The position numbers were made by a program, and so were the translations under genes. DNA of 40,266 nt from Tolypothrix carrinoi HA7290-LM1 (GTDB taxonomy: Bacteria > Cyanobacteriota > Cyanobacteriia > Cyanobacteriales > Nostocaceae), in contig JAHHIK010000080.1 of NCBI GenBank assembly GCA_019358935.1, positions 1 to 40,266 on the forward strand, written 5' to 3'. The notes beneath the pieces were generated by a model. The model worked only from the letters and a program-made list of their open reading frames with translations. It had not been told where the DNA came from and searched no databases. Of the stretch, positions 1 to 9,966 are shown in pieces; position 1 is the first letter of the stretch; every line of letters begins with the position of its first letter.

Positions 1-1194
1 TACCCGGGGGACACGGCGGCCACGGAGGAATTTCTCCCTGGTCTCCCCCCTCTCCCTTGTCTCCCTTGTCCCCCCCCTCTCCCCCTCTCCCCCTCTCCCC
101 CTCCTCTTGCGCGAGGTTCTGCCCGTTCAATAAACTCAGTTGACTTGTATCAATTGGTAAAAGACCAAGCACATTTGTTACATCGCTTTGGGGGACATCC
201 CTTTGCAGCGGGGTTGAGTTTGCCGGTGGAGAATATTCCTTTATTTACAGAAGCGATTAATCAACGCTTGCGGCAAACTTTAGGTGGGGCAACTCTGACA
301 CCAACAATACAAGCAGACTTGGCAGTAACGGTAGCAGATTTGGGAAAAGATTTATTTTATGAACTGAAATTACTTGAACCGTGCGGAATGGGAAATCCTG
401 TACCGAAACTGCTAATTGAAAATTGCTGGTTTGAAAATTCTTGGAATCGCAATCAGCAAGATTCGCGGGGGAAAAAGGTACAGTATATTAAAACAGATTT
501 TCAAATTCGCGATGATTCTATCAGAAGCAGTTTTCCTGGGATTTGGTGGGGACACTACAAAGATGAATTGCCGATCGCAAGGTGTGATTGCATCGCGGAA
601 TTAGATTACAACACCTTCAAAAAACGCTATGAAATCAGATTAATTGCCGTGCGAAGAAGTGAAAACTCAATATTTCAGCACGCGGTTAACTCCTCAGCAC
701 TGATAGTAGATTGGCGAAATGTTACTACTAAAGAAGACTCAGCACTTTTAGTTAAAGAGTGTCCCACAAGTTGGGATGATTTAAGAGCATGGTTAAGGCG
801 ATCGCTTTACAATCAACAACAACTAGCGATCGCTTGGTCTAAACCTGAAAACAAACAACCTGAGCAAATTTGGCTCACCCTTGTGGGAATTGCTAAATAC
901 CTCAGTCGCACCAATCAAACAGTTACTCGCGTACAGCTATTAGAAAAACTCGGCATTAAAGACCAAACCTTGTATTTTGGATTTAGAGCTTTAAAATGCT
1001 TAGGATTCACAATCACTCGAGTTGATCGTAACTTGCAAATGAGCTTGCATTCTACCAATATTGCCGAAACAGTAGCCGATGCTGCCGTTGAACAATTTTT
1101 AGCCACAGTGCGAGAAGAACAATTTCAACGTCAGTATTTTGCCGAAGTTCCTTTATCTACAATTATGGCGATCGCCTCTCAAATACTCAATTAG
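1..1194 (+). CDS. recJ: Single-stranded-DNA exonuclease RecJ, 3' part (5' end outside window)
   Basis: Frame is open from base 1. DHHA1 motifs ARGSARS and FGGHPFAAGL, then LEPCGMGNPVP, typical of RecJ. Bases 1-108 are an in-frame low-complexity repeat insertion. Confidence 0.9.
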   Translation, partial: YPGDTAATEEFLPGLPPLPCLPCPPPLPLSPSPPPLARGSARSINSVDLYQLVKDQAHLLHRFGGHPFAAGLSLPVENIPLFTEAINQRLRQTLGGATLTPTIQADLAVTVADLGKDLFYELKLLEPCGMGNPVPKLLIENCWFENSWNRNQQDSRGKKVQYIKTDFQIRDDSIRSSFPGIWWGHYKDELPIARCDCIAELDYNTFKKRYEIRLIAVRRSENSIFQHAVNSSALIVDWRNVTTKEDSALLVKECPTSWDDLRAWLRRSLYNQQQLAIAWSKPENKQPEQIWLTLVGIAKYLSRTNQTVTRVQLLEKLGIKDQTLYFGFRALKCLGFTITRVDRNLQMSLHSTNIAETVADAAVEQFLATVREEQFQRQYFAEVPLSTIMAIASQILN

Positions 1195-1335: not shown

Positions 1336-1992
1336 ATGCTACAGTACAATCCGCTAGACTGCTTACCTGATGCCGAGGATTTGCTCGACTCCGACGATAC
1401 CCCTGTAGATAACGAATTACAAAATTTGATTTCCGGTTTACTTAAAGCTGTACTAGCTATGGTGTGGGCAGACCGGATGGACTGGTTCTTTGGTGTTGAT
1501 CTGAGGATTTATTACGATCCCAATCAGCCAGCGATCGCACCAGATGCATTTTTGAGTTTGGGAGTTGAACGAATTATTGATGAAAATCTGCGTTTAGCTT
1601 ATCTTCTTTGGGAAGAACAGCACGTACCAATTATGGCGCTAGAAGTGGTTTATCATCAACCAGGCGGGGAATACACCACCAAGAGAAAAATTTATACTCA
1701 ATTAGAAGTCTTATATTATGTCATTTATAGTCCTCTGCGGGACAGAAAACGGACTTTAGAAGTGTATCGTTTGGTAAATGGCAAGTATCGATTACAGCCA
1801 GAAAATCCAGTTTGGCTACCGGAAATTGGTTTAGGAATTGGCTGTGAACAGGGAACATATCAAGGCATTACACGGGAGTGGCTTTACTGGTATAACGAGC
1901 AAGGCAAGCGTTTGTTAACACCAGAAGAACGGGTGCAAATACTGGCAGAACGTCTTAGAGCATTTGGTGTAGATCCAGATTCTTTGGTTTAG
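1336..1992 (+). CDS. Uma2 (DUF820) family PD-(D/E)XK-like protein, copy 1
   Basis: DSDDTPVDNELQ, APDAFLSLGV, ALEVV and REWLYWY motifs of cyanobacterial Uma2 proteins. Confidence 0.88.
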   Translation: MLQYNPLDCLPDAEDLLDSDDTPVDNELQNLISGLLKAVLAMVWADRMDWFFGVDLRIYYDPNQPAIAPDAFLSLGVERIIDENLRLAYLLWEEQHVPIMALEVVYHQPGGEYTTKRKIYTQLEVLYYVIYSPLRDRKRTLEVYRLVNGKYRLQPENPVWLPEIGLGIGCEQGTYQGITREWLYWYNEQGKRLLTPEERVQILAERLRAFGVDPDSLV

Positions 1993-2024
1993 AATGTGCT
2001 TCTGTATCAGTTATCCGAGTTAAG

Positions 2025-2057
2025 AGAACCCCGGTTTCTTCAAGAAACCGGGGTTCT
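2025..2057. repeat. Perfect palindrome between the Uma2 copies
   Basis: AGAACCCCGGTTTCTT-C-AAGAAACCGGGGTTCT. Confidence 0.8.
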
Positions 2058-2110
2058 GGGTTTGCAAGACTATGATCGGAGTATTAGATCAGATGAATGG
2101 CAATCAGATC

Positions 2111-2809
2111 ATGCTACAGTACGATCCGCTAGACTGCTTACCCTCCGCCAAGGATTTGCCGGACTCAGACGATACCCCTGTGGATAACGAATTACAAGAT
2201 TTAATTCCCGGTTTACTCAAAGTCATACTAGCTATGTTGTGGGCAGACCGGATGGACTGGTTTTTCGGCGTTGATATGGGTATTTATTACGACCCTGAAC
2301 AGCCGGCAATTGTACCAGATGGGTTTTTGAGTCTGGGAGTTGAACGAATTATTGATGAGAATCTGCGTTTAAGTTATGTTCTTTGGGAAGAACAGCGCGT
2401 ACCAATTATGGCATTAGAGGTGGTTTCTCAAAAGCAGCGTGGGGAATATAGCACCAAGAAAGAATTTTATGCCGAGCTAGAAGTTTTATATTATGTAGTT
2501 TATAATCCCCAGCGGCGGAGAAAACAGACTTTAGAAGTGTATCACTTGGAAGATGGCGAGTATCAATTACAGCGAGGAAATCCCGTTTGGCTACCGGAAA
2601 TCGGGTTAGGGATTGGCTGTGAACGGGGGACATATCTAGGTATTACACGCGAGTGGCTTTACTGGTATAACGAGCAAGGGCAGCGTTTATTAACACCAGA
2701 AGAACGGGTTCAACAAGCAGAACAAGAAGCACAACAAGCACAACAACGCGCTCAAATGCTGGCAGAGCGTCTAAAATCCCTTGGTGTAGATCCAGATTCT
2801 TTGGTTTAG
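2111..2809 (+). CDS. Uma2 (DUF820) family protein, copy 2
   Basis: Paralog of 1336-1992; start placed at ATG 2111 (MLQYDP) by alignment with copy 1. Has a C-terminal QAEQEAQQAQQ coiled coil. Confidence 0.88.
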   Translation: MLQYDPLDCLPSAKDLPDSDDTPVDNELQDLIPGLLKVILAMLWADRMDWFFGVDMGIYYDPEQPAIVPDGFLSLGVERIIDENLRLSYVLWEEQRVPIMALEVVSQKQRGEYSTKKEFYAELEVLYYVVYNPQRRRKQTLEVYHLEDGEYQLQRGNPVWLPEIGLGIGCERGTYLGITREWLYWYNEQGQRLLTPEERVQQAEQEAQQAQQRAQMLAERLKSLGVDPDSLV

Positions 2810-2876
2810 AATGTGCTTCGGGGTGAATTATATCGGCTGCCAGCTGTGATAACCAAGGCACAAGCCTGAAAAACTG

Positions 2877-3200
2877 GTGAACGAGTCTTTTAGGGAGATG
2901 AACGAGTCTTTTAGTGAGATGAACGAGTCTTTTAGTGAGATGAACGAGTCTTTTAGTGAGATGAACGAGTCTTTTAGTGAGATGAATGAGTCTTTTAGTG
3001 AGATGAATGAGTCTTTTAGTGAGATGAATGAGTCTTTTAGTGAGATGAATGAGTCTTTTAGTGAGATGAATGAGTCTTTTAGTGAGATGAATGAGTCTTT
3101 TAGTGAGATGAATGAGTATTAAAGACTCTTTAATGAGGTTAAAAGACTCTTTAATGAGTATCAAAGACTCTTTAATGAGGTTAAAAGGCTCTTTAATGAG
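2877..3200. repeat. Two abutting 21-bp tandem arrays with inverted cores
   Basis: 11 copies of ATGAAYGAGTCTTTTAGTGAG (2877-3107), then 4 copies of a unit such as AATGAGGTTAAAAGACTCTTT (3111-3194). Confidence 0.95.
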
Positions 3201-3305
3201 TCAGCTTAACGCAAAATAGGCGGATCGCTTACACCAATTCTTCAAAATAGGCAACAGATGCCAACCTGAAAAGCCAAATTAAATTCTGACTTTCTTAATT
3301 ACGAA

Positions 3306-6300
3306 TTACGAATTACCAATTAAACCTTGCACTCTCGCTACCATTTGCCTAACTGCCTCAGCATCAGGAGATTGAATACGCTGCAATATCTCCAAAGCTG
3401 GCTGCAAATAATCTAAAGCTTTATTGTAATCGCCCTGTTGTTCTGCTATACCCCCTAACCACCACAAAGTCATTGCCTTACCTTGGACATCGCCGATTTG
3501 TTCACTGAGGGCAAAGGATTGTTCAAAAAGGGCGATCGCTTCGTTGATTTTTCCTGTATTGGCTTTGATATAACCCAAATTGTGCAACGTCCTTACCTGG
3601 GTATGGAAATCGCTGATTTGTTTTGTAAGGTCAAGGGATTGTTCAAAAAGGGCGACTGCTTCATTGATTTCTCCGCTATTAAGTTTGAGATATCCCAAGT
3701 TATTTAAGGTCGCTGCCAGTCCTTGGATATCGCCGATTTGTTTTGCGAGGACAAGGGATTTTTCAAAAAGGGCGATCGCTTCGTTAATTTTTCCTGTATT
3801 GACTTTGAGACTCCCCAGACACTGCAACGTCGCTGCCAGTCCTTGGATATCGCGGGTTTGTTCCTTGATGGCAAGGGATTGTTCAAAAAAGGCGATTGCT
3901 TCGTTAATGTTTCCTGTATTGGCTTTAAGTCTACCCATTTCGTGCAACGTCGCTGCCAGCCCTTGGACATCGCGGATTTGTTCTGTGAGGACAAGGGATT
4001 GTTCAAAAAAGGCGATAGCTTCGTTAATGTTTCCTGTATTGGCTTTGAGTCTCCCCATTTCATGCAACGTCGCTGCCAGTCCTCGGACATCGTGGATTTG
4101 TTCTGTGAGGGCAAGGGATTGTTCAAAAAGGGCGATCGCTTCGTTAATTTTTCCTGTATTGGCTTTGAGATATCCCAAGTTGTGAATAATTGCTATTTTT
4201 TCTTTTTCGTCTTCTACTAGACAGCTATCTAGGGCTTGTTGATAATGCTCTTGTGCTTTACTAACTTCACCTAGTTGTTGTTCACAGCGAGCTAATGCAT
4301 GTAACAGTAAGTAATTTTTAGCAATTTCTAGAGTAGATTTGCACAACTTAACAGCTTCTCGAAATCGGCTTTGATTTCTCCAGTGCCTTGCTAACCTCCC
4401 TGCGATTTCTACAGCAATCTTGTCTACCTTCCCTCGCAACGCCAGCCGATGAATTTCTAAGGCTTGTTCCTCGGTTGCAGTTTCTGCCTCTTCCCACCAA
4501 AGACGATACAACACCTCAGCCGCTTGCTTATGCAAAGCTTCCCCATCTTCCGATAACTGCACAGGCAAAATGCGCGGCACTCGTAACGCCTCATCGTGGC
4601 TCACTTCCAACAGTCCCAACGCCACAGCCCGACTAATATAATGTGACAAATTGGGGATAGTGTCACAAACTGCGGCTAAAGCTTCTTTCGGTACTGGCAA
4701 CTCAAACACCAAACCCCGTGACAACATCTCCCGCATAGTTGTATCCATTTGTTCCAGCAGCGCTTCTGCCAAAACTTGCTCTCGCAACTCCACCGGATCT
4801 GCTGCCAACCGATTCAAAATTGCCGCTTGGTCAACTGTTGTATTTTGCAGAATCTTATCCAACCATTCCAGCAAGCGAGGATTACCATCTGCTAACTTCT
4901 GCGCTTGCGATTTTAACGCCTCATCCACCTGAGATTTAGCATTAAAAGCTGTGAGGCGATTAAACTTTTTTTGCAAATCTGCCCCTTGCAGTGCATCCAA
5001 CGGCTGCTTGTGGAAATGCTGCAACTGGCTAAATTCAAAATCGTAACGGCAGGTAATAATGATGCGGTGGGAAGTGTAATTTTCTCTAATTGCCCAAACT
5101 AAAGCCTTCATTACCTCTGCTGCTTCCGGTTGCAGCCGACCTAACCCCCCTAACCCCCCTTCCCTGCTAGGGAAGGGGGGAACTTGACTCCCCTCTTTGC
5201 TTCGGAGAGGGGCTGGGGGAGAGGTCTCTAAATTCACTTCAAAGTCATCCAGCACCAACAAAAACGGCTTTGCTTGTTCATGTAACTGCTGGAAAACTCG
5301 CTTCAGCCGAAATCTCAATTCTTCATCGTAATTTTGCAGGCTTTTGCGTTGTTCGTTGTCATCCAACTTTTCTGCCAAGCGACTCACCAAACTAGCTTCA
5401 TCAATTCTTCCCACCCAGACAACACGCTGAAAATTCGGCAGTCTGTCACTAAGCCTAGCTGCTAAACTACTTTTACCCAAACCGCCCATCCCATGAATCA
5501 ACACCCCCACTTCATCGCTTGATTGTGTCAGCACCCTTAAACAATTTTGCAATTGCCGACGACGACCAACAAAACTTTCCCGCGTCGGGACTTTCACCTT
5601 ACCCGCAGCATCTAAAAACTGGGTAGAAACAGAAGGTGGTGGTGCTGGTTTCCGTCCACGAGTCCGCAAAGGTGTAACTAATGTTGGTAAATTGCCTGCC
5701 GCATACAGCCGCAATAAATGCCAATCCCGCGCTTTGTTCTTAATTAATGCTTGGTAAGTACAAGCAAGAGCTTCGGTGATTTGCTTCCCCGCAGACAATT
5801 CCTCATACAATGCAGCAGCTGCGGCTGTAGCTTCAGGATCTAAAACCTTTTGACCCCAACCCAAAACCGCTTTTGCACCCGATTTCAGCAACTCTTCAGC
5901 CATTGACGGCACAGATCCAGAATTGCCTGCTTGCCCAGTGCGACAACCAGAGAGGAATATCAGTTTAGGCAGTCGAAATTGTAATTCTTCGGCGATATCC
6001 CCAGCACTGGCATAGTAAGCTTCACCTGTTGCCGTTTCTGTAATGAAGCGGGGTTGCCCATCTTGTAGAGTAGCATGACCCGTCAGGTGTAAAACATCAA
6101 AATAATCTTTGTCATAACCATCGACTAAATAACCCAACTCCGACAAACAGCCGCTTTCTTCCACCGTCAAAGCTAAAGGTTGCCGCTTTGTGGCTTCCAG
6201 AATCCGTGCTTCCTCTCCCTCAAAATCCAGCACAGGTTTGACATCCAGAGGCGAAGTTGCCATAAACACAACTTGCAAAGCCCGGTTTTCTGGTTCCCCT

Positions 6301-6707
6301 TCAATGGTCAATTTTTTTACCGTGCTATCCGACACCCAGCGCACCGGGACAATAGCCGGGACCCGCTGCACCAAAAACCCATTACCATCGTGCAACACTT
6401 CCCAAGGCAGATGGGCAAGTTGTTCTGCTGCGGCGATCGCTAAAACAATCCCCTCACGCCGATACTTATCTAGCAATTGCAGAGTGCGATCGCTCCCATC
6501 CAACCAGTTATACAACCGCCGTCCAGTTACTGTATAATCCTCTGGTAAATCCGAAACGTAATAATCTCTCTCAGCCAACTTAATCAAATCGGCGATTTCT
6601 GTTATGGAGAGCGATCGCTTCTGATACTCATTTGGATTATCAATAAAGTAACGCAGCTCTACGTAATTACCAGCAACTAACTTGAGGTCGAGGTGGAGCG
6701 TTTGCAC
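3306..6707 (-). CDS. CHAT (caspase-like) protease - STAND/NB-ARC-like NTPase - TPR protein
   Basis: CHAT catalytic His (LHLTGHA) and Cys (FLSGCRTG); FVGRRRQL; Walker A GMGGLGKS; Walker B LLVLDDFE; GNPRLL (GxP motif); C-terminal 40-aa TPR units. GTG start. Confidence 0.92.
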   Translation of the reverse strand: MQTLHLDLKLVAGNYVELRYFIDNPNEYQKRSLSITEIADLIKLAERDYYVSDLPEDYTVTGRRLYNWLDGSDRTLQLLDKYRREGIVLAIAAAEQLAHLPWEVLHDGNGFLVQRVPAIVPVRWVSDSTVKKLTIEGEPENRALQVVFMATSPLDVKPVLDFEGEEARILEATKRQPLALTVEESGCLSELGYLVDGYDKDYFDVLHLTGHATLQDGQPRFITETATGEAYYASAGDIAEELQFRLPKLIFLSGCRTGQAGNSGSVPSMAEELLKSGAKAVLGWGQKVLDPEATAAAAALYEELSAGKQITEALACTYQALIKNKARDWHLLRLYAAGNLPTLVTPLRTRGRKPAPPPSVSTQFLDAAGKVKVPTRESFVGRRRQLQNCLRVLTQSSDEVGVLIHGMGGLGKSSLAARLSDRLPNFQRVVWVGRIDEASLVSRLAEKLDDNEQRKSLQNYDEELRFRLKRVFQQLHEQAKPFLLVLDDFEVNLETSPPAPLRSKEGSQVPPFPSREGGLGGLGRLQPEAAEVMKALVWAIRENYTSHRIIITCRYDFEFSQLQHFHKQPLDALQGADLQKKFNRLTAFNAKSQVDEALKSQAQKLADGNPRLLEWLDKILQNTTVDQAAILNRLAADPVELREQVLAEALLEQMDTTMREMLSRGLVFELPVPKEALAAVCDTIPNLSHYISRAVALGLLEVSHDEALRVPRILPVQLSEDGEALHKQAAEVLYRLWWEEAETATEEQALEIHRLALRGKVDKIAVEIAGRLARHWRNQSRFREAVKLCKSTLEIAKNYLLLHALARCEQQLGEVSKAQEHYQQALDSCLVEDEKEKIAIIHNLGYLKANTGKINEAIALFEQSLALTEQIHDVRGLAATLHEMGRLKANTGNINEAIAFFEQSLVLTEQIRDVQGLAATLHEMGRLKANTGNINEAIAFFEQSLAIKEQTRDIQGLAATLQCLGSLKVNTGKINEAIALFEKSLVLAKQIGDIQGLAATLNNLGYLKLNSGEINEAVALFEQSLDLTKQISDFHTQVRTLHNLGYIKANTGKINEAIALFEQSFALSEQIGDVQGKAMTLWWLGGIAEQQGDYNKALDYLQPALEILQRIQSPDAEAVRQMVARVQGLIGNS
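3481..4200 (-). repeat. Six 120-bp intragenic tandem repeats encoding TPR units
   Basis: Near-identical units start at 3481, 3601, 3721, 3841, 3961 and 4081. Confidence 0.92.
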
Positions 6708-6811
6708 ATTCTTGCTCTACAACTTTGAGACTTCAGCATTTACCTCAAGTCTATCACCCTCGATTCCAAAGACGCGATTTGTAATACCATTTCTAGATGA
6801 AGATGCGTCAT

Positions 6812-7120
6812 TACTAGCCCACGCAGGTGGGCTTTGTTTGTATAGCCCCAGGCTTCTAGCCTGAGGGCGATTGAAGAAAGGCAGAGGGCAGGAGGCAGCT
6901 ATGCTGAAGGAGCAATCGGATGGGGATTCAAACCCCAACCGATTGAATCCACCGTGTAGACGGTGGGGTTTTATACCCAGTTGGCTCCAGCCAGAAGGCT
7001 GAATCAAAGACATAATTTATACCTTATGCCCTCTGCCCTCTGCCTTCTGCCTTCCGCCGAAGGCGGATAAAGCGCAGCATCACAAAGAATTGGTGTAAAG
7101 ACGCGATAAATCGCGTCACT
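6812..7120. repeat. Cluster of small dispersed palindromic repeats and STRR arms
   Basis: AGCCCAC-GCAG-GTGGGCT; GGCAGAGGGCAG versus TGCCCTCTGCC inverted arms; CCACCGT-GTAG-ACGGTGG; GACGCGAT-AA-ATCGCGTC. Confidence 0.7.
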
Positions 7121-7445
7121 ACGATTCTAAAATTTGGCGAATCTCTTCCAAGGTTGCATCTTCTAAAAGGAGTCGTCTGCCATTACGTCCGACAATCAAC
7201 ACCTTTTCAATTCTTTTACCAGATTGTTTCTGTTTATACTCTTGATACCACTTGCGGATTTGTTCAGCAATGGCGATCGCTCCCCCGACAATACCAACGA
7301 TGCTAGCAACAGTTGCGATTACTCCCTCTCTTTCGGGTGCTTCTGAACTCACCTTATAGTTACCTGATATACCGGGAATCGCCAAAAGCGCTTCTGTTGC
7401 AGCGATCGCATCTTCACCCTCAATCGCCAACCGAATTTCTGCCAT
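7119..7445 (-). CDS. Small EACC1/Pepco-like protein with central hydrophobic segment, co-oriented upstream of the CHAT gene
   Basis: 108 aa; REG followed by VIATVASIVGIVGGAIAIAEQIRKW and a short beta-rich C-terminus. This layout and context resemble peptidase-co-occurring proteins. Family label is an inference. Confidence 0.65.
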   Translation of the reverse strand: MAEIRLAIEGEDAIAATEALLAIPGISGNYKVSSEAPEREGVIATVASIVGIVGGAIAIAEQIRKWYQEYKQKQSGKRIEKVLIVGRNGRRLLLEDATLEEIRQILES

Positions 7446-7545
7446 ACTTTACCTGCAAGCATATCTAATCCAGGCTTATTTTCAATAATACCACCAGAGC
7501 GATCGGCGTTTCTCGGTCATTAATTATTCCTTATTAATAGTTCAC

Positions 7546-7601
7546 TCCCCCTTGTCCCCCTTGTCCCCCTTGTCCCCCTTGTCCCCCCATCCCCCCCCTC
7601 C
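7546..7601. repeat. CCCCCTTGT-type short tandem repeat
   Basis: Directly visible 9-bp tandem units. Confidence 0.85.
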
Positions 7602-8243
7602 TCATCTCCCCAAATTCCCCTGTCGTTCGCACCGAAAACCTCGTTGCTGCCAATCTTGCATATTCACTTCAGTTAGTCTAGTCACATTTGAGCATTCTGG
7701 CTGAATAAATTGACTTAAACCTGCCCAAAACAAACTGCGGGTTACATCTGCTGAGGTTTTCAACCAAGACTCACGATTACCAGGAATGCCTTTTTCCTCA
7801 ACAATCACAGGTTCTACCCAAATACCATGAGCACCTAAAAGAATTTGTCCTAGCCATTTCGCTCTTGGTAAGTGAGTTGCGGAAGTAATAAGCATGACTT
7901 TATGCACTCCCAAACGGCGCAAAATAGGAATACCATAATAGAAATTTTCAAAGGTGGAATCGGCACAATTTTCTAACCAAACATTTTGTATAGGTGCTAC
8001 TTCTCGTTGAAAAATCAACCAAATACAAGGATCTTGAGAACCGCGAGAAATTAAAATCGGCGTAGAGGGAGATTTTTTTGCTTCTTGGGCAACATAAATT
8101 TCTCTAGTAATGCTGCCACCAAGTACAAAAAAGCCATCTACTGGCGAGGATGACGCATTCAGTAGAGTTATACTCATAAAAATCAGCCAAATAGCCAACA
8201 CAGCACATAAACTCAGAGATAACTTTTGTAACATTTGCCACAT
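7602..8243 (-). CDS. YdcF/DUF218 family protein
   Basis: N-terminal TM segment, VLGGS, ADSTFENF, LITSATHLPRA. Confidence 0.85.
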   Translation of the reverse strand: MWQMLQKLSLSLCAVLAIWLIFMSITLLNASSSPVDGFFVLGGSITREIYVAQEAKKSPSTPILISRGSQDPCIWLIFQREVAPIQNVWLENCADSTFENFYYGIPILRRLGVHKVMLITSATHLPRAKWLGQILLGAHGIWVEPVIVEEKGIPGNRESWLKTSADVTRSLFWAGLSQFIQPECSNVTRLTEVNMQDWQQRGFRCERQGNLGR

Positions 8244-8628
8244 TTTGCAGATTTTTATCCTATCTTCGATGAATGTTTTTTAGTAAAAATACGTCTGATG
8301 GCACAAGCACTTCAAAGCTAAGAAAGGATTTTGTCCTACAGACATACACTTAAGCAGAAGCTAGTGCTATCTTATTAAAAGTAATTGAGGGTGAGAGGAC
8401 GACACACAGCTATAGTGTTAATAATTAAGATTAACCTTCCGGAAAGAGATGACAAACGGAAGGATAATTGTTAAAAAGTAACGCAGTGCTTTAGCCGAAT
8501 TTAAAGGGCAAAATTATGAAGTAATTGTAGCTTTATAAGCACAAAACCGATAAATTTCTGGTAGATTTCATAAGAAAGCCAGATTGCTAAACTGTCAATA
8601 ACACAATTATTCCAGCTGATATACATAC

Positions 8629-9966
8629 ATGAACCAATCTGCGAAACGTTCCTCGCCGCTCCAAGTAGCCTTGATTGGTGGAGCGATCGCCACAACAGCA
8701 GCTTTGTCTGTGTTCGGTCAAGCGTGGTGTCGCTCCGTCCGCGCCGCCTTACAAGATAGCCCAAAAGCGATCGTAGACCAAGTGTGGCAACTAGTAAATC
8801 GTGAATATGTTGATGGCAAATTTAATCAACAAGATTGGCAAGCAACCAGACAAACCCTTTTAAGTAAAAATTATTCTTCTCGTGACGAAGCTTACACAGC
8901 CATCCGAGAAGCTTTAAAAAAATTGGGCGATCCTTACACTCGGTTCATGGACCCGAAACAGTATGACGCCCTCACCAGCCAAACATCTGGGGAAGTTTCG
9001 GGTATTGGCATTCGGATGGAACTGAATGAAAAAACCAAGCGACTCACCGTTGTCGAAGCGATCGAAAATTCGCCAGCACTCAAAGCAGGTATCAAAGCCG
9101 GCGATGAGATTCTAGCAATTGACGGCAAACCCATACATGACCTGAAAGTAGAAGACGCATCTAAGCTGATTCGCGGTAAAGCGGGTACTGCTATAGTATT
9201 GCGGCTGGCACGTCAGGGTCAAAGAGAAATGGATGTTAGGCTGACACGAGCCACCATTGAAGTGCCAACGGTGAAATACACCCTCAAGCGAGAAGGCTCA
9301 AAGCGTGTTGGCTATATCAAATTGCGAGAGTTCAGCGCTCACGCTGCCGATCAAATGCGGCGAGCAATTCGCGATTTGAACGGTCAGCAAGTTGATAGTT
9401 ACGTCTTAGATTTGCGCGGAAATCCCGGCGGTTTGTTGCAAGCGAGTATTGAAATTGCTCGCATGTGGATAGCTGATGGCGGGATTGTCAAGACAGTAGA
9501 CCGTGTGGGAGGAACTGAACTCAGCAAGGCAAATAACACCGCCATTACAAAACGTCCCTTGGCAGTACTGATAGATAATAATTCAGCCAGTGCTAGTGAA
9601 ATCCTCACAGGCGCACTCAAGGATAATAAGCGAGCGGTAGTTGTTGGTAGTCAAAGCTTTGGTAAAGCCTTAGTACAGTCAGTGCATGAACTGCCAGACG
9701 GTTCCGGCGTAGCCATCACCATTGCCCATTACTACACCCCTGAAGGAACAGACATTAACCATAAAGGTATTACCCCTGATATCAAGATAGATTTGTCAGA
9801 CGCGCAAGAGCGTCAGTTGGCGATTAATCCAAATTTGGTGGCGACTCAAAACGATCCGCAATATGCGCGAGCGATCGCCGCTTTATCCAGCAGAAACTTC
9901 GCCCAACCCCCAGCAAATCAACGGTCAAAACCGTTGAGCGTTCGCGCCTCAGATTTGAAATTTTAG
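8629..9966 (+). CDS. ctpB: Carboxyl-terminal processing protease (S41, PDZ), CtpB type
   Basis: DPYTRF, GIGI PDZ, LDLRGNPGGLL, SASASEI (catalytic Ser), FGKALVQ (catalytic Lys). Confidence 0.9.
   Translation: MNQSAKRSSPLQVALIGGAIATTAALSVFGQAWCRSVRAALQDSPKAIVDQVWQLVNREYVDGKFNQQDWQATRQTLLSKNYSSRDEAYTAIREALKKLGDPYTRFMDPKQYDALTSQTSGEVSGIGIRMELNEKTKRLTVVEAIENSPALKAGIKAGDEILAIDGKPIHDLKVEDASKLIRGKAGTAIVLRLARQGQREMDVRLTRATIEVPTVKYTLKREGSKRVGYIKLREFSAHAADQMRRAIRDLNGQQVDSYVLDLRGNPGGLLQASIEIARMWIADGGIVKTVDRVGGTELSKANNTAITKRPLAVLIDNNSASASEILTGALKDNKRAVVVGSQSFGKALVQSVHELPDGSGVAITIAHYYTPEGTDINHKGITPDIKIDLSDAQERQLAINPNLVATQNDPQYARAIAALSSRNFAQPPANQRSKPLSVRASDLKF

Follow-up and report, generated by a model that had tools for sequence, protein, structure and literature searches.

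Two neighbouring genes of Tolypothrix carrinoi HA7290-LM1, located within the 40,266-nucleotide stretch of DNA analyzed here (the window), probably act together as an abortive-defence module of the EACC1-caspase kind, in which a protease gates cell death. The upstream gene encodes a 108-amino-acid (aa) protein which is predicted to be a latent pore-forming effector, and the co-oriented downstream gene encodes a 1133-aa protein in which a CHAT protease is followed by a STAND nucleoside triphosphatase (NTPase) and a TPR sensor. Pairs of EACC1 and a caspase, and a mechanism in which cleavage gates the pore, have been described before (Kaur et al., 2020, PMC7159879; Evans et al., 2025, 10.1101/2025.11.14.688446). 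The present system differs from the known ones in its CHAT-type protease, its probable cut-site residue, its host range and its recombining sensor. The features of the module, given as window positions with strand, are as follows.

3306..6707 (-), 1133-aa CHAT protease - STAND NTPase - TPR sensor (open reading frame (ORF) with GTG start; Pfam)
5673..6707 (-), CHAT (caspase-like) domain, residues 1-345, with His211 at 6075-6077 and Cys255 at 5943-5945
4548..5600 (-), STAND module, about residues 370-720, with winged-helix region; Walker A at 5469-5492, Walker B at 5244-5261
5134..5229 (no strand assigned), in-frame insertion after Walker B derived from a dispersed repeat, about 23 extra residues, in 3/25 aligned proteins
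3468..4430 (-), variable TPR sensor, residues about 760-1080
3474..4193 (-), six 40-aa repeats, residues 839-1078, 68-91% identical to each other in DNA
3309..3467 (-), C-terminal capping repeat, residues 1081-1133, 92% identical in aa to the sister genome
7119..7445 (-), 108-aa divergent EACC1-family protein, predicted latent pore-forming effector (ORF, homology, model)
7326..7331 (-), Arg39-Glu40, candidate P1 residues in the low-confidence linker 34-42 (conservation, model)
7266..7322 (-), hydrophobic segment 42-60 with central Gly/small-residue patch, then the conserved Trp66 helix (hydropathy, conservation)

Linkage and distribution of the gene pair

The linkage was assessed at 92 small-protein loci (63 and 29 from two sets that possibly share genomes, with the locus of the window excluded), of which 77 are near-complete, i.e., match over at least 88 residues. 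A co-oriented CHAT sequence of at least 250 aa lies within 3.3 kilobases (kb) downstream in 67 of these 77 loci and a CHAT fragment in another seven, giving 74/77 with CHAT sequence just downstream; two more loci end at a contig edge. The reverse search from the protease returned 19 matches in 17 of 121 genomes, and the small gene is found directly upstream in 15 of them. Linkage is near-obligate in both directions, and the pairing of the two genes, for which an earlier reading of the window from its sequence only had named linkage in other genomes as a check, is upheld. Among the 15 partial small-gene loci, CHAT was counted in two and not in 12, and one cannot be judged. Some of the 12 keep TPR or short CHAT remnants, and the lack of a counted CHAT in them is consistent with joint decay of the pair.

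With partial matches counted, the small-protein profile finds its target in 37 of the 301 cyanobacterial genomes searched and in 20 of the 35 from the window's family; the nearest named relatives are Nostocales. The pair also occurs in one Gammaproteobacteria and one Gemmatimonadetes metagenome-assembled genome (MAG). Five plasmids carry the small gene, conjugative plasmids being among the carriers, and all three that were opened have a CHAT-NTPase gene next to it. The pair is found at many unrelated sites, and broken copies are common in relatives. Both this patchy distribution and the empty genomic slot in relatives described below count in favour of a defence module. A search of 50,697 phage records gave no match, and only two sequencing runs contained any share of the stretch, both small (0.10 and 0.07).

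Some CHAT genes and loci depart from the usual arrangement. A sister CHAT clade (L144, L145 and L147) has no small gene within 1.5 kb upstream, and is possibly effector-free or served by another partner. The T. carrinoi genome itself contains what is left of a broken CHAT paralogue, which has neither small gene nor NTPase nor TPRs (G000:C11:71465-72316; L129, L149). In Pseudanabaena sp. UWO311 (L044:6826-9736), a 724-aa ORF with a Piwi domain (Argonaute) is flanked by a CHAT fragment of 168 aa and by a TPR remnant, where it occupies the place of the middle of the receptor gene, and a toxin-antitoxin-like pair is found between this ORF and the small gene.

The small protein

The sequence-only reading had called the small partner EACC1/Pepco-like, of which the EACC1 part stands and the Pepco part falls. 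The 108-aa protein has no Pfam match at E<=0.1. A first profile search with it gave 231 representatives, and 12 of the 94 distant homologues scanned match the EACC1 family PF19953 at E<=0.05, one of them above the cut-off; EACC1 is the most recurrent family among these 94. The second round gave 41 proteins, six of them annotated PF19953, and of the 33 scanned 26 match the family at E<=0.01 and seven are at or above the cut-off. A profile of the close family matches these seven proteins over the whole length with an HH probability of 99.1%, and BLASTP aligns the window's small protein to one PF19953-level protein with 32% identity (E 1e-14). A separate lead to EACC1 came from Atlas (10% of one cluster). 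The Pepco and Trypco models matched none of the 38, 94 and 33 homologues scanned. Pepco, a small pore former that is associated with proteases and frequent in cyanobacteria, resembles the small protein in these respects, but it does not fit because it is a beta-barrel activated when its C-terminal tail is taken off (10.1101/2025.11.14.688446), and a Pepco identity was ruled out. Judged by these homologies, the small protein is a divergent EACC1 and not a Pepco. One homologue, P0215, is a 368-aa protein in which an EACC1-like domain at the C-terminus is fused to an unrelated N-terminal region without Pfam match.

The upstream, co-oriented position of the small gene and its REG motif followed by a hydrophobic segment had been noted before, and both are confirmed by the ORF: REG is found at residues 39-41, and the 19 residues that follow have a mean hydropathy of 2.4. 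Linker position 39 is Arg or Lys in 82/84 homologues, and position 40 is Glu or Asp in 60/84. The predicted model (mean predicted local distance difference test, pLDDT, 81.7) has a strand (2-10), a helix (13-21), a strand (26-33), another strand (43-51), a helix (55-73), two strands (79-85 and 91-93) and a helix (99-107), with residues 31-40 as the least confident block. Hydropathy, conservation and the model, even though the last has 43-51 as a strand, together give the single hydrophobic segment, central small residues and alpha+beta flanks that characterize EACC1. Fold searches with the model returned common alpha+beta folds only (best Z 7.0), with no EACC1 entry listed. When two CHAT domains were modelled together with the small protein, the predicted complex scored 0.02 against a mark of 0.32, and was counted neither for nor against an interaction.

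The CHAT protease and STAND module

The large protein had been described as a 1133-aa product with a CHAT His/Cys dyad, Walker A and B motifs and a TPR array, and the ORF, the Pfam matches and the invariant motifs bear this out. Pfam CHAT (PF12770) matches residues 61-328 (E 3.9e-21), AAA_16/NB-ARC matches 379-490, and TPR families are above the cut-off. His211 and Cys255 are invariant in 32/32 aligned CHAT domains, as in an N-terminal peptidase of the caspase superfamily. Walker A K412, Walker B D487/D488, the sensor R554 and the GxP motif are invariant in 25/25 full-length proteins. Together with the C-terminal repeats they make up the features of a STAND protein. The STAND part has a weak sequence match to Apaf-1 (E 0.009), and the full-length model matches the STAND-TPR protein 6mfv over 729 columns, but with a root-mean-square deviation of 17. 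The CHAT and NTPase parts of this model are weak (pLDDT 65.7), and its fold search is dominated by TPR proteins.

A sequence search of the PDB with the CHAT profile gave nothing significant, and the only NCBIfam match of the domain at E<=0.1 is HetF, which is weak (E 1.3e-5; 23.7 bits vs a cut-off of 1200). The system is regarded as a variant of EACC1-caspase because its protease, as far as its sequence tells, belongs to a peptidase subfamily other than the EACC1-associated caspase type. Two regions with acidic residues, one following strand 1 and one in the later helix, are named for Arg-specific clan CD proteases (PMC4626109). The CHAT domain keeps Glu165/166 in 32/32 and Asp/Glu290 in 31/32 sequences, and these residues may correspond to the two regions.

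The repeat at 5134-5229 has 55 matches in the genome. The same insertion after Walker B is present in Nostoc L031 and Cronbergia L032 and absent from the 22 other aligned proteins, a pattern which suggests that core segments are exchanged too.

A variable and recombining TPR sensor

The identity of the window protein to 19 close orthologues is 90% at residues 1-345 and 89% at 370-700, and only 54% at 760-1080 and 72% in the cap. In the sister genome G284, recJ and ydcF are 95% and the small gene 97% identical in DNA, and most core blocks of the receptor 87-100% (78% for the block with the insertion), whereas residues 721-1080 fall to 59-72%, with third positions dropping too in the first part, before the cap returns to 92%. 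This looks like the pattern of a sensor cassette swapped between sister genomes. Across 28 proteins (those under 930 aa and L024 were left out), pairs with at least 82% core identity (n=194, not independent) have sensor identities of 22-89%, with a Spearman correlation of 0.07 to core identity. Sensor classes also cross genera, as Nostoc L010 and Rivularia L017 share 70% and Nostoc L007 and Calothrix L026 64%. In these alignments, the sensor is decoupled from a core that is about 90% conserved.

A set of 31 genes contains 130 canonical 40-aa repeats, 0 to 14 per gene, and 19 genes have two or more. Repeat DNA is on average 80% identical within a gene (440 pairs) vs 69% between genes, and the nearest neighbour of a repeat is in the same gene for 67/130 vs 5% expected. 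Among the eight most variable repeat positions, five (TPR 2, 5, 6, 9 and 13, numbered after the TPR consensus) are ligand contacts in PMC1261162. The ratio of nonsynonymous to synonymous differences (pN/pS) at TPR position 9 is 2.2 against the pS of all sites and 1.6 against its own codon, and the ratio for the core is 0.14-0.28 (11 comparisons).

Two N. punctiforme plasmids have the same CHAT-NTPase core with GUN4 in place of the TPR array, and GUN4 has been mentioned as a cyanobacterial sensor (10.1101/2022.07.19.500537). Both of these forms (pNPUN01, L126:7342-10239; pNPUN02, L128:7333-9963) keep the EACC1-like small gene and have a further small gene, annotated ParG, ahead of them; in pNPUN02 an ISL3 transposase adjoins the copy, within its GUN4 part or at it. 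That cyanobacterial NLRs can have internally conserved repeats is known in general terms, without a function (10.1101/2020.01.06.895854; PMC13449251). The same gene pair in the Gemmatimonadetes MAG (L095:6428-10210) has near-identical 41-aa TPR repeats; since these are of a different family, homogenised repeats evolved on this core at least twice.

Spacer and genomic slot

The sequence-only reading had found nothing but repeat DNA between the two genes, and the spacer indeed resolves into nested repeats. It is 411 base pairs (bp) long and consists of a short ancestral spacer and the following insertion.

6768..7107 (no strand assigned), nested repeat insertion with 11-bp direct repeats at 6768-6778 and 7097-7107

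Across 69 loci the median spacer is 81 bp, and 23/69 are below 20 bp (one negative value is an alignment artefact). The outer part of the insertion is an older dispersed repeat, and inside it lies a 200-bp element (6871-7070) with 37 near-full copies of at least 95% identity in the genome. The older repeat is present and the 200-bp element absent in the sister genome G284, and the close relative L043 aligns to the spacer only at 6700-6778 and 7099-7125. The 200-bp element looks recently mobile; it is non-coding, has internal inverted repeats and occurs as tandem partial copies on contig C52. The 320 bp of nested repeats carry hairpins and two terminator-like sites, both on the opposite strand. 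Promoter and terminator scans of the locus gave signals at chance level, and Rfam had no match within 2700-8700 of the window. A 98-aa ORF (6717-7013) spans the spacer repeats, has no Pfam match, and was ruled out as a part of the system since it lies on repeat DNA.

The pair lies in a slot with these surroundings.

7602..8243 (-), ydcF/DUF218, one core flank of the slot (Pfam, comparison of ydcF loci)
1..1194 (+), recJ (3' part), the other core flank (Pfam, comparison of ydcF loci)
1336..2809 (+), two Uma2 genes, passengers in the ydcF-recJ slot

At 30 ydcF loci of Nostocaceae, ydcF is followed directly by recJ in seven, i.e., the slot is empty, by the CHAT/small-gene pair in five (T. carrinoi included), by Uma2 in one, and by other genes, a contig end or too little sequence in 17. 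The slot is accessory because ydcF thus runs variously into recJ, the pair, Uma2 or other genes. The accessory slot had earlier been placed between Uma2 and ydcF; its accessory nature is retained and its borders are moved to ydcF and recJ. Downstream of the receptor gene, a 21-bp tandem repeat of about 13 copies (2878-3200) is open in both directions, and similar arrays are found 3' of the receptor gene in several relatives. ORFs of 81 and 173 aa over this array were ruled out as system parts, as they lie on repeat DNA, and a YonT match (E 0.022) was rejected as below the cut-off.

Comparison with known systems

The EACC1-caspase pair goes back to Kaur et al. (PMC7159879), who defined it as a two-gene system ('System 4') in which STAND and repeat fusions also occur. 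As in System 4, the 5' gene here is small, with one hydrophobic segment, a small-residue patch and alpha+beta flanks, and the 3' gene has an N-terminal caspase-superfamily peptidase, a STAND NTPase and repeats; both occur in multicellular hosts. However, System 4 is actinobacterial and sporadically proteobacterial, while the present clade is mainly cyanobacterial, has a CHAT-type peptidase and is missed by PF19953 directly.

The best studied pair is that of Ktedonobacter racemifer, in which KrAvs12 cleaves KrEACC1 at the putative Asp49 (10.1101/2025.11.14.688446). Toxicity is confined to the 7.1-kDa C-terminal fragment, the junction tolerates being moved slightly, and cleaved KrEACC1 makes liposomes leak. 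Both systems have the EACC1 gene (114 aa in K. racemifer, 108 aa here) upstream of a cysteine protease-STAND gene, and the predicted cut falls just before the hydrophobic segment, which gives C-terminal fragments of 65 and 68-69 residues, respectively. The modelled topology, with N-terminal strands, a low-confidence linker, a helix and two C-terminal strands, fits the description of latent KrEACC1. By eye, Asp49 of KrEACC1 is placed shortly ahead of the hydrophobic segment, like Glu40 in the window's protein, and counting back from the conserved Trp places Arg39 on Arg46 of KrEACC1. While KrAvs12 has a compact caspase domain with catalytic Cys152, a putative Asp49 cut and a fixed sensor for a phage protein, the present system has CHAT Cys255, Arg/Lys as its best-conserved linker residue, and a hypervariable TPR array.

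The effector-STAND-TPR architecture is that of Avs and bacterial NLR-like receptors, for which 90 STAND sensor families and 589 clades appear in Lee et al., 2026 (PMC13581612). An Avs family has a sensor for one conserved phage fold, whereas here cores of about 90% identity carry sensors that are 22-89% identical. Terms for this clade had no match in seven supplements of that paper, and three large supplements outside the search may cover it. The fungal het-e/het-d NLRs (PMC13449251) similarly have tandem repeats that are homogenised within the gene, vary in number, are most variable at putative binding positions and have alleles across lineages. Unlike the fungal genes, with repeats of 80-100% identity, the present genes are bacterial, their repeats (68-91% identical) lie partly below that range, and only part of the orthologues have such repeats. 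A literature search found no paper on a cyanobacterial CHAT-linked EACC1 clade, with subscription papers and several supplements not visible to it.

Proposed mechanism and alternatives

In the proposed mechanism, the TPR array would bind a foreign ligand, most likely a phage protein by analogy to Avs and NLR biology. The STAND module, whose motifs are intact, would exchange nucleotide and oligomerise, which would bring the CHAT domains together. His211 and Cys255 would then cut the small protein in its exposed linker and remove the N-terminal beta-alpha-beta cap. A cut after Arg39 seems somewhat more likely than one after Glu40, because of the stronger conservation of Arg39 and because acidic residues are retained in CHAT in what may be the regions named for Arg-specific clan CD proteases. 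The freed C-terminal fragment of 68-69 residues would insert its Gly-rich hydrophobic segment and oligomerise into a pore, as demonstrated only for the homologue KrEACC1, and the pore would kill the cell and spare the filament, presumably as a protection against phage. The sequence-only reading, in which cleavage near REG frees a membrane-active C-terminal fragment, is probably right. The protease-NTPase core and the effector appear to be held under purifying selection, and the observed diversity of the sensor would arise by repeat gain and loss, homogenisation and cassette exchange.

Several results weigh against this interpretation. One of the 77 near-complete small-gene loci is without CHAT, and four of the 19 protease matches, which are weaker matches and include the broken paralogue of T. 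carrinoi, are without the small gene. Membership in EACC1 is transitive, because the small protein and its 37 closest homologues miss the PF19953 cut-off (only 3/38 touch the family, best E 0.016) and because PF19953 found nothing in 201 cyanobacterial genomes, a search in which the control also gave no signal. The protease is not of the caspase type of KrAvs12, and a PADLOC 2023 scan matched no system model, only a generic TPR model. Residues 43-51 form a strand in the monomer model and are not part of a single transmembrane helix. Gene neighbourhoods are mixed, with some Uma2, toxin-antitoxin, HNH and BrxB genes and many ordinary ones (54 of 91 listed neighbours scanned), and their support for a defence role is modest. 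At the five binding positions together, pN is 0.27 and pS 0.29 (pN/pS about 0.94) and positive selection is not demonstrated; relaxed constraint with recombination accounts for the sensor pattern as well as positive selection does.

The trigger might also be something other than a phage. With the same effector chemistry, the TPR array could read a non-self or altered-self ligand (from another strain, a parasite, a mobile element or host stress), like fungal het NLRs. This would agree with repeats that resemble those of their own gene more than those of other genes (80% vs 69% in DNA, 67/130 nearest neighbours in the same gene), with allele classes that cross genera (L010/L017 and L007/L026), with the replacement of the TPR array by GUN4 on two plasmids, and with the reports of such repeats in cyanobacterial NLRs without function. 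However, the characterised bacterial STAND sensors in PMC13581612 all sense a phage protein, and variable sensors are also predicted by a phage arms race, and we consider a non-phage trigger quite improbable. A bacterial counterpart of fungal het-type allorecognition, in which a fixed protease-pore unit is combined with a recombining TPR cassette, the allele pool extends across genera, and the non-self ligands lie outside one conserved phage fold or range far more widely than it, is unlikely.

The small protein could instead serve as a membrane anchor or sensor and switch the protease on, without being the killer itself. This was the role originally proposed for EACC1 (PMC7159879), and the hydrophobic segment with its small-residue patch would suit an anchor too. 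Yet the cleaved C-terminal fragment of KrEACC1 is toxic alone and permeabilised liposomes (10.1101/2025.11.14.688446), and a cut site is the better explanation for a basic residue that stays conserved while the linker around it varies; an anchor is very unlikely. HetF has a developmental or cell-division role. As HetF is the only NCBIfam match of the CHAT domain, albeit weak, and as the pair is commonest in the heterocyst-forming family of the window (20/35), the protease might process the small protein as a developmental or cell-division signal. This is hardly credible for a pair that is absent from 15/35 genomes of the family searched, is often broken, has many unrelated locations, and extends to plasmids and to other phyla. 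We also give little chance to a system that is real in relatives and silenced in T. carrinoi by the spacer repeats or the NTPase insertion. The hairpins and terminator-like sites in the spacer and the broken copies in relatives would fit silencing, but both frames are intact with all catalytic motifs present, other intact loci have spacers of 200-1400 bp, and the insertion is common to other intact genes.

Significance

As a probable protease-gated pore-forming module, the pair adds to the EACC1 pore family a cyanobacterial clade not detected by Pfam, present in 37/301 genomes searched and 20/35 in the window's family, in which EACC1 is joined to another protease class and probably to another cut-site chemistry. 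One core and effector come with many sensors, GUN4 among them, and this natural allelic series would provide a ready death reporter for finding what the variable TPR sensors of filamentous cyanobacteria recognise, a question that has been raised before (10.1101/2020.01.06.895854; PMC13449251). If true, the het-type reading would make the pair a model, directly open to testing, of how an immune locus with variable receptors works in a multicellular bacterium, and cell death would be its built-in readout.

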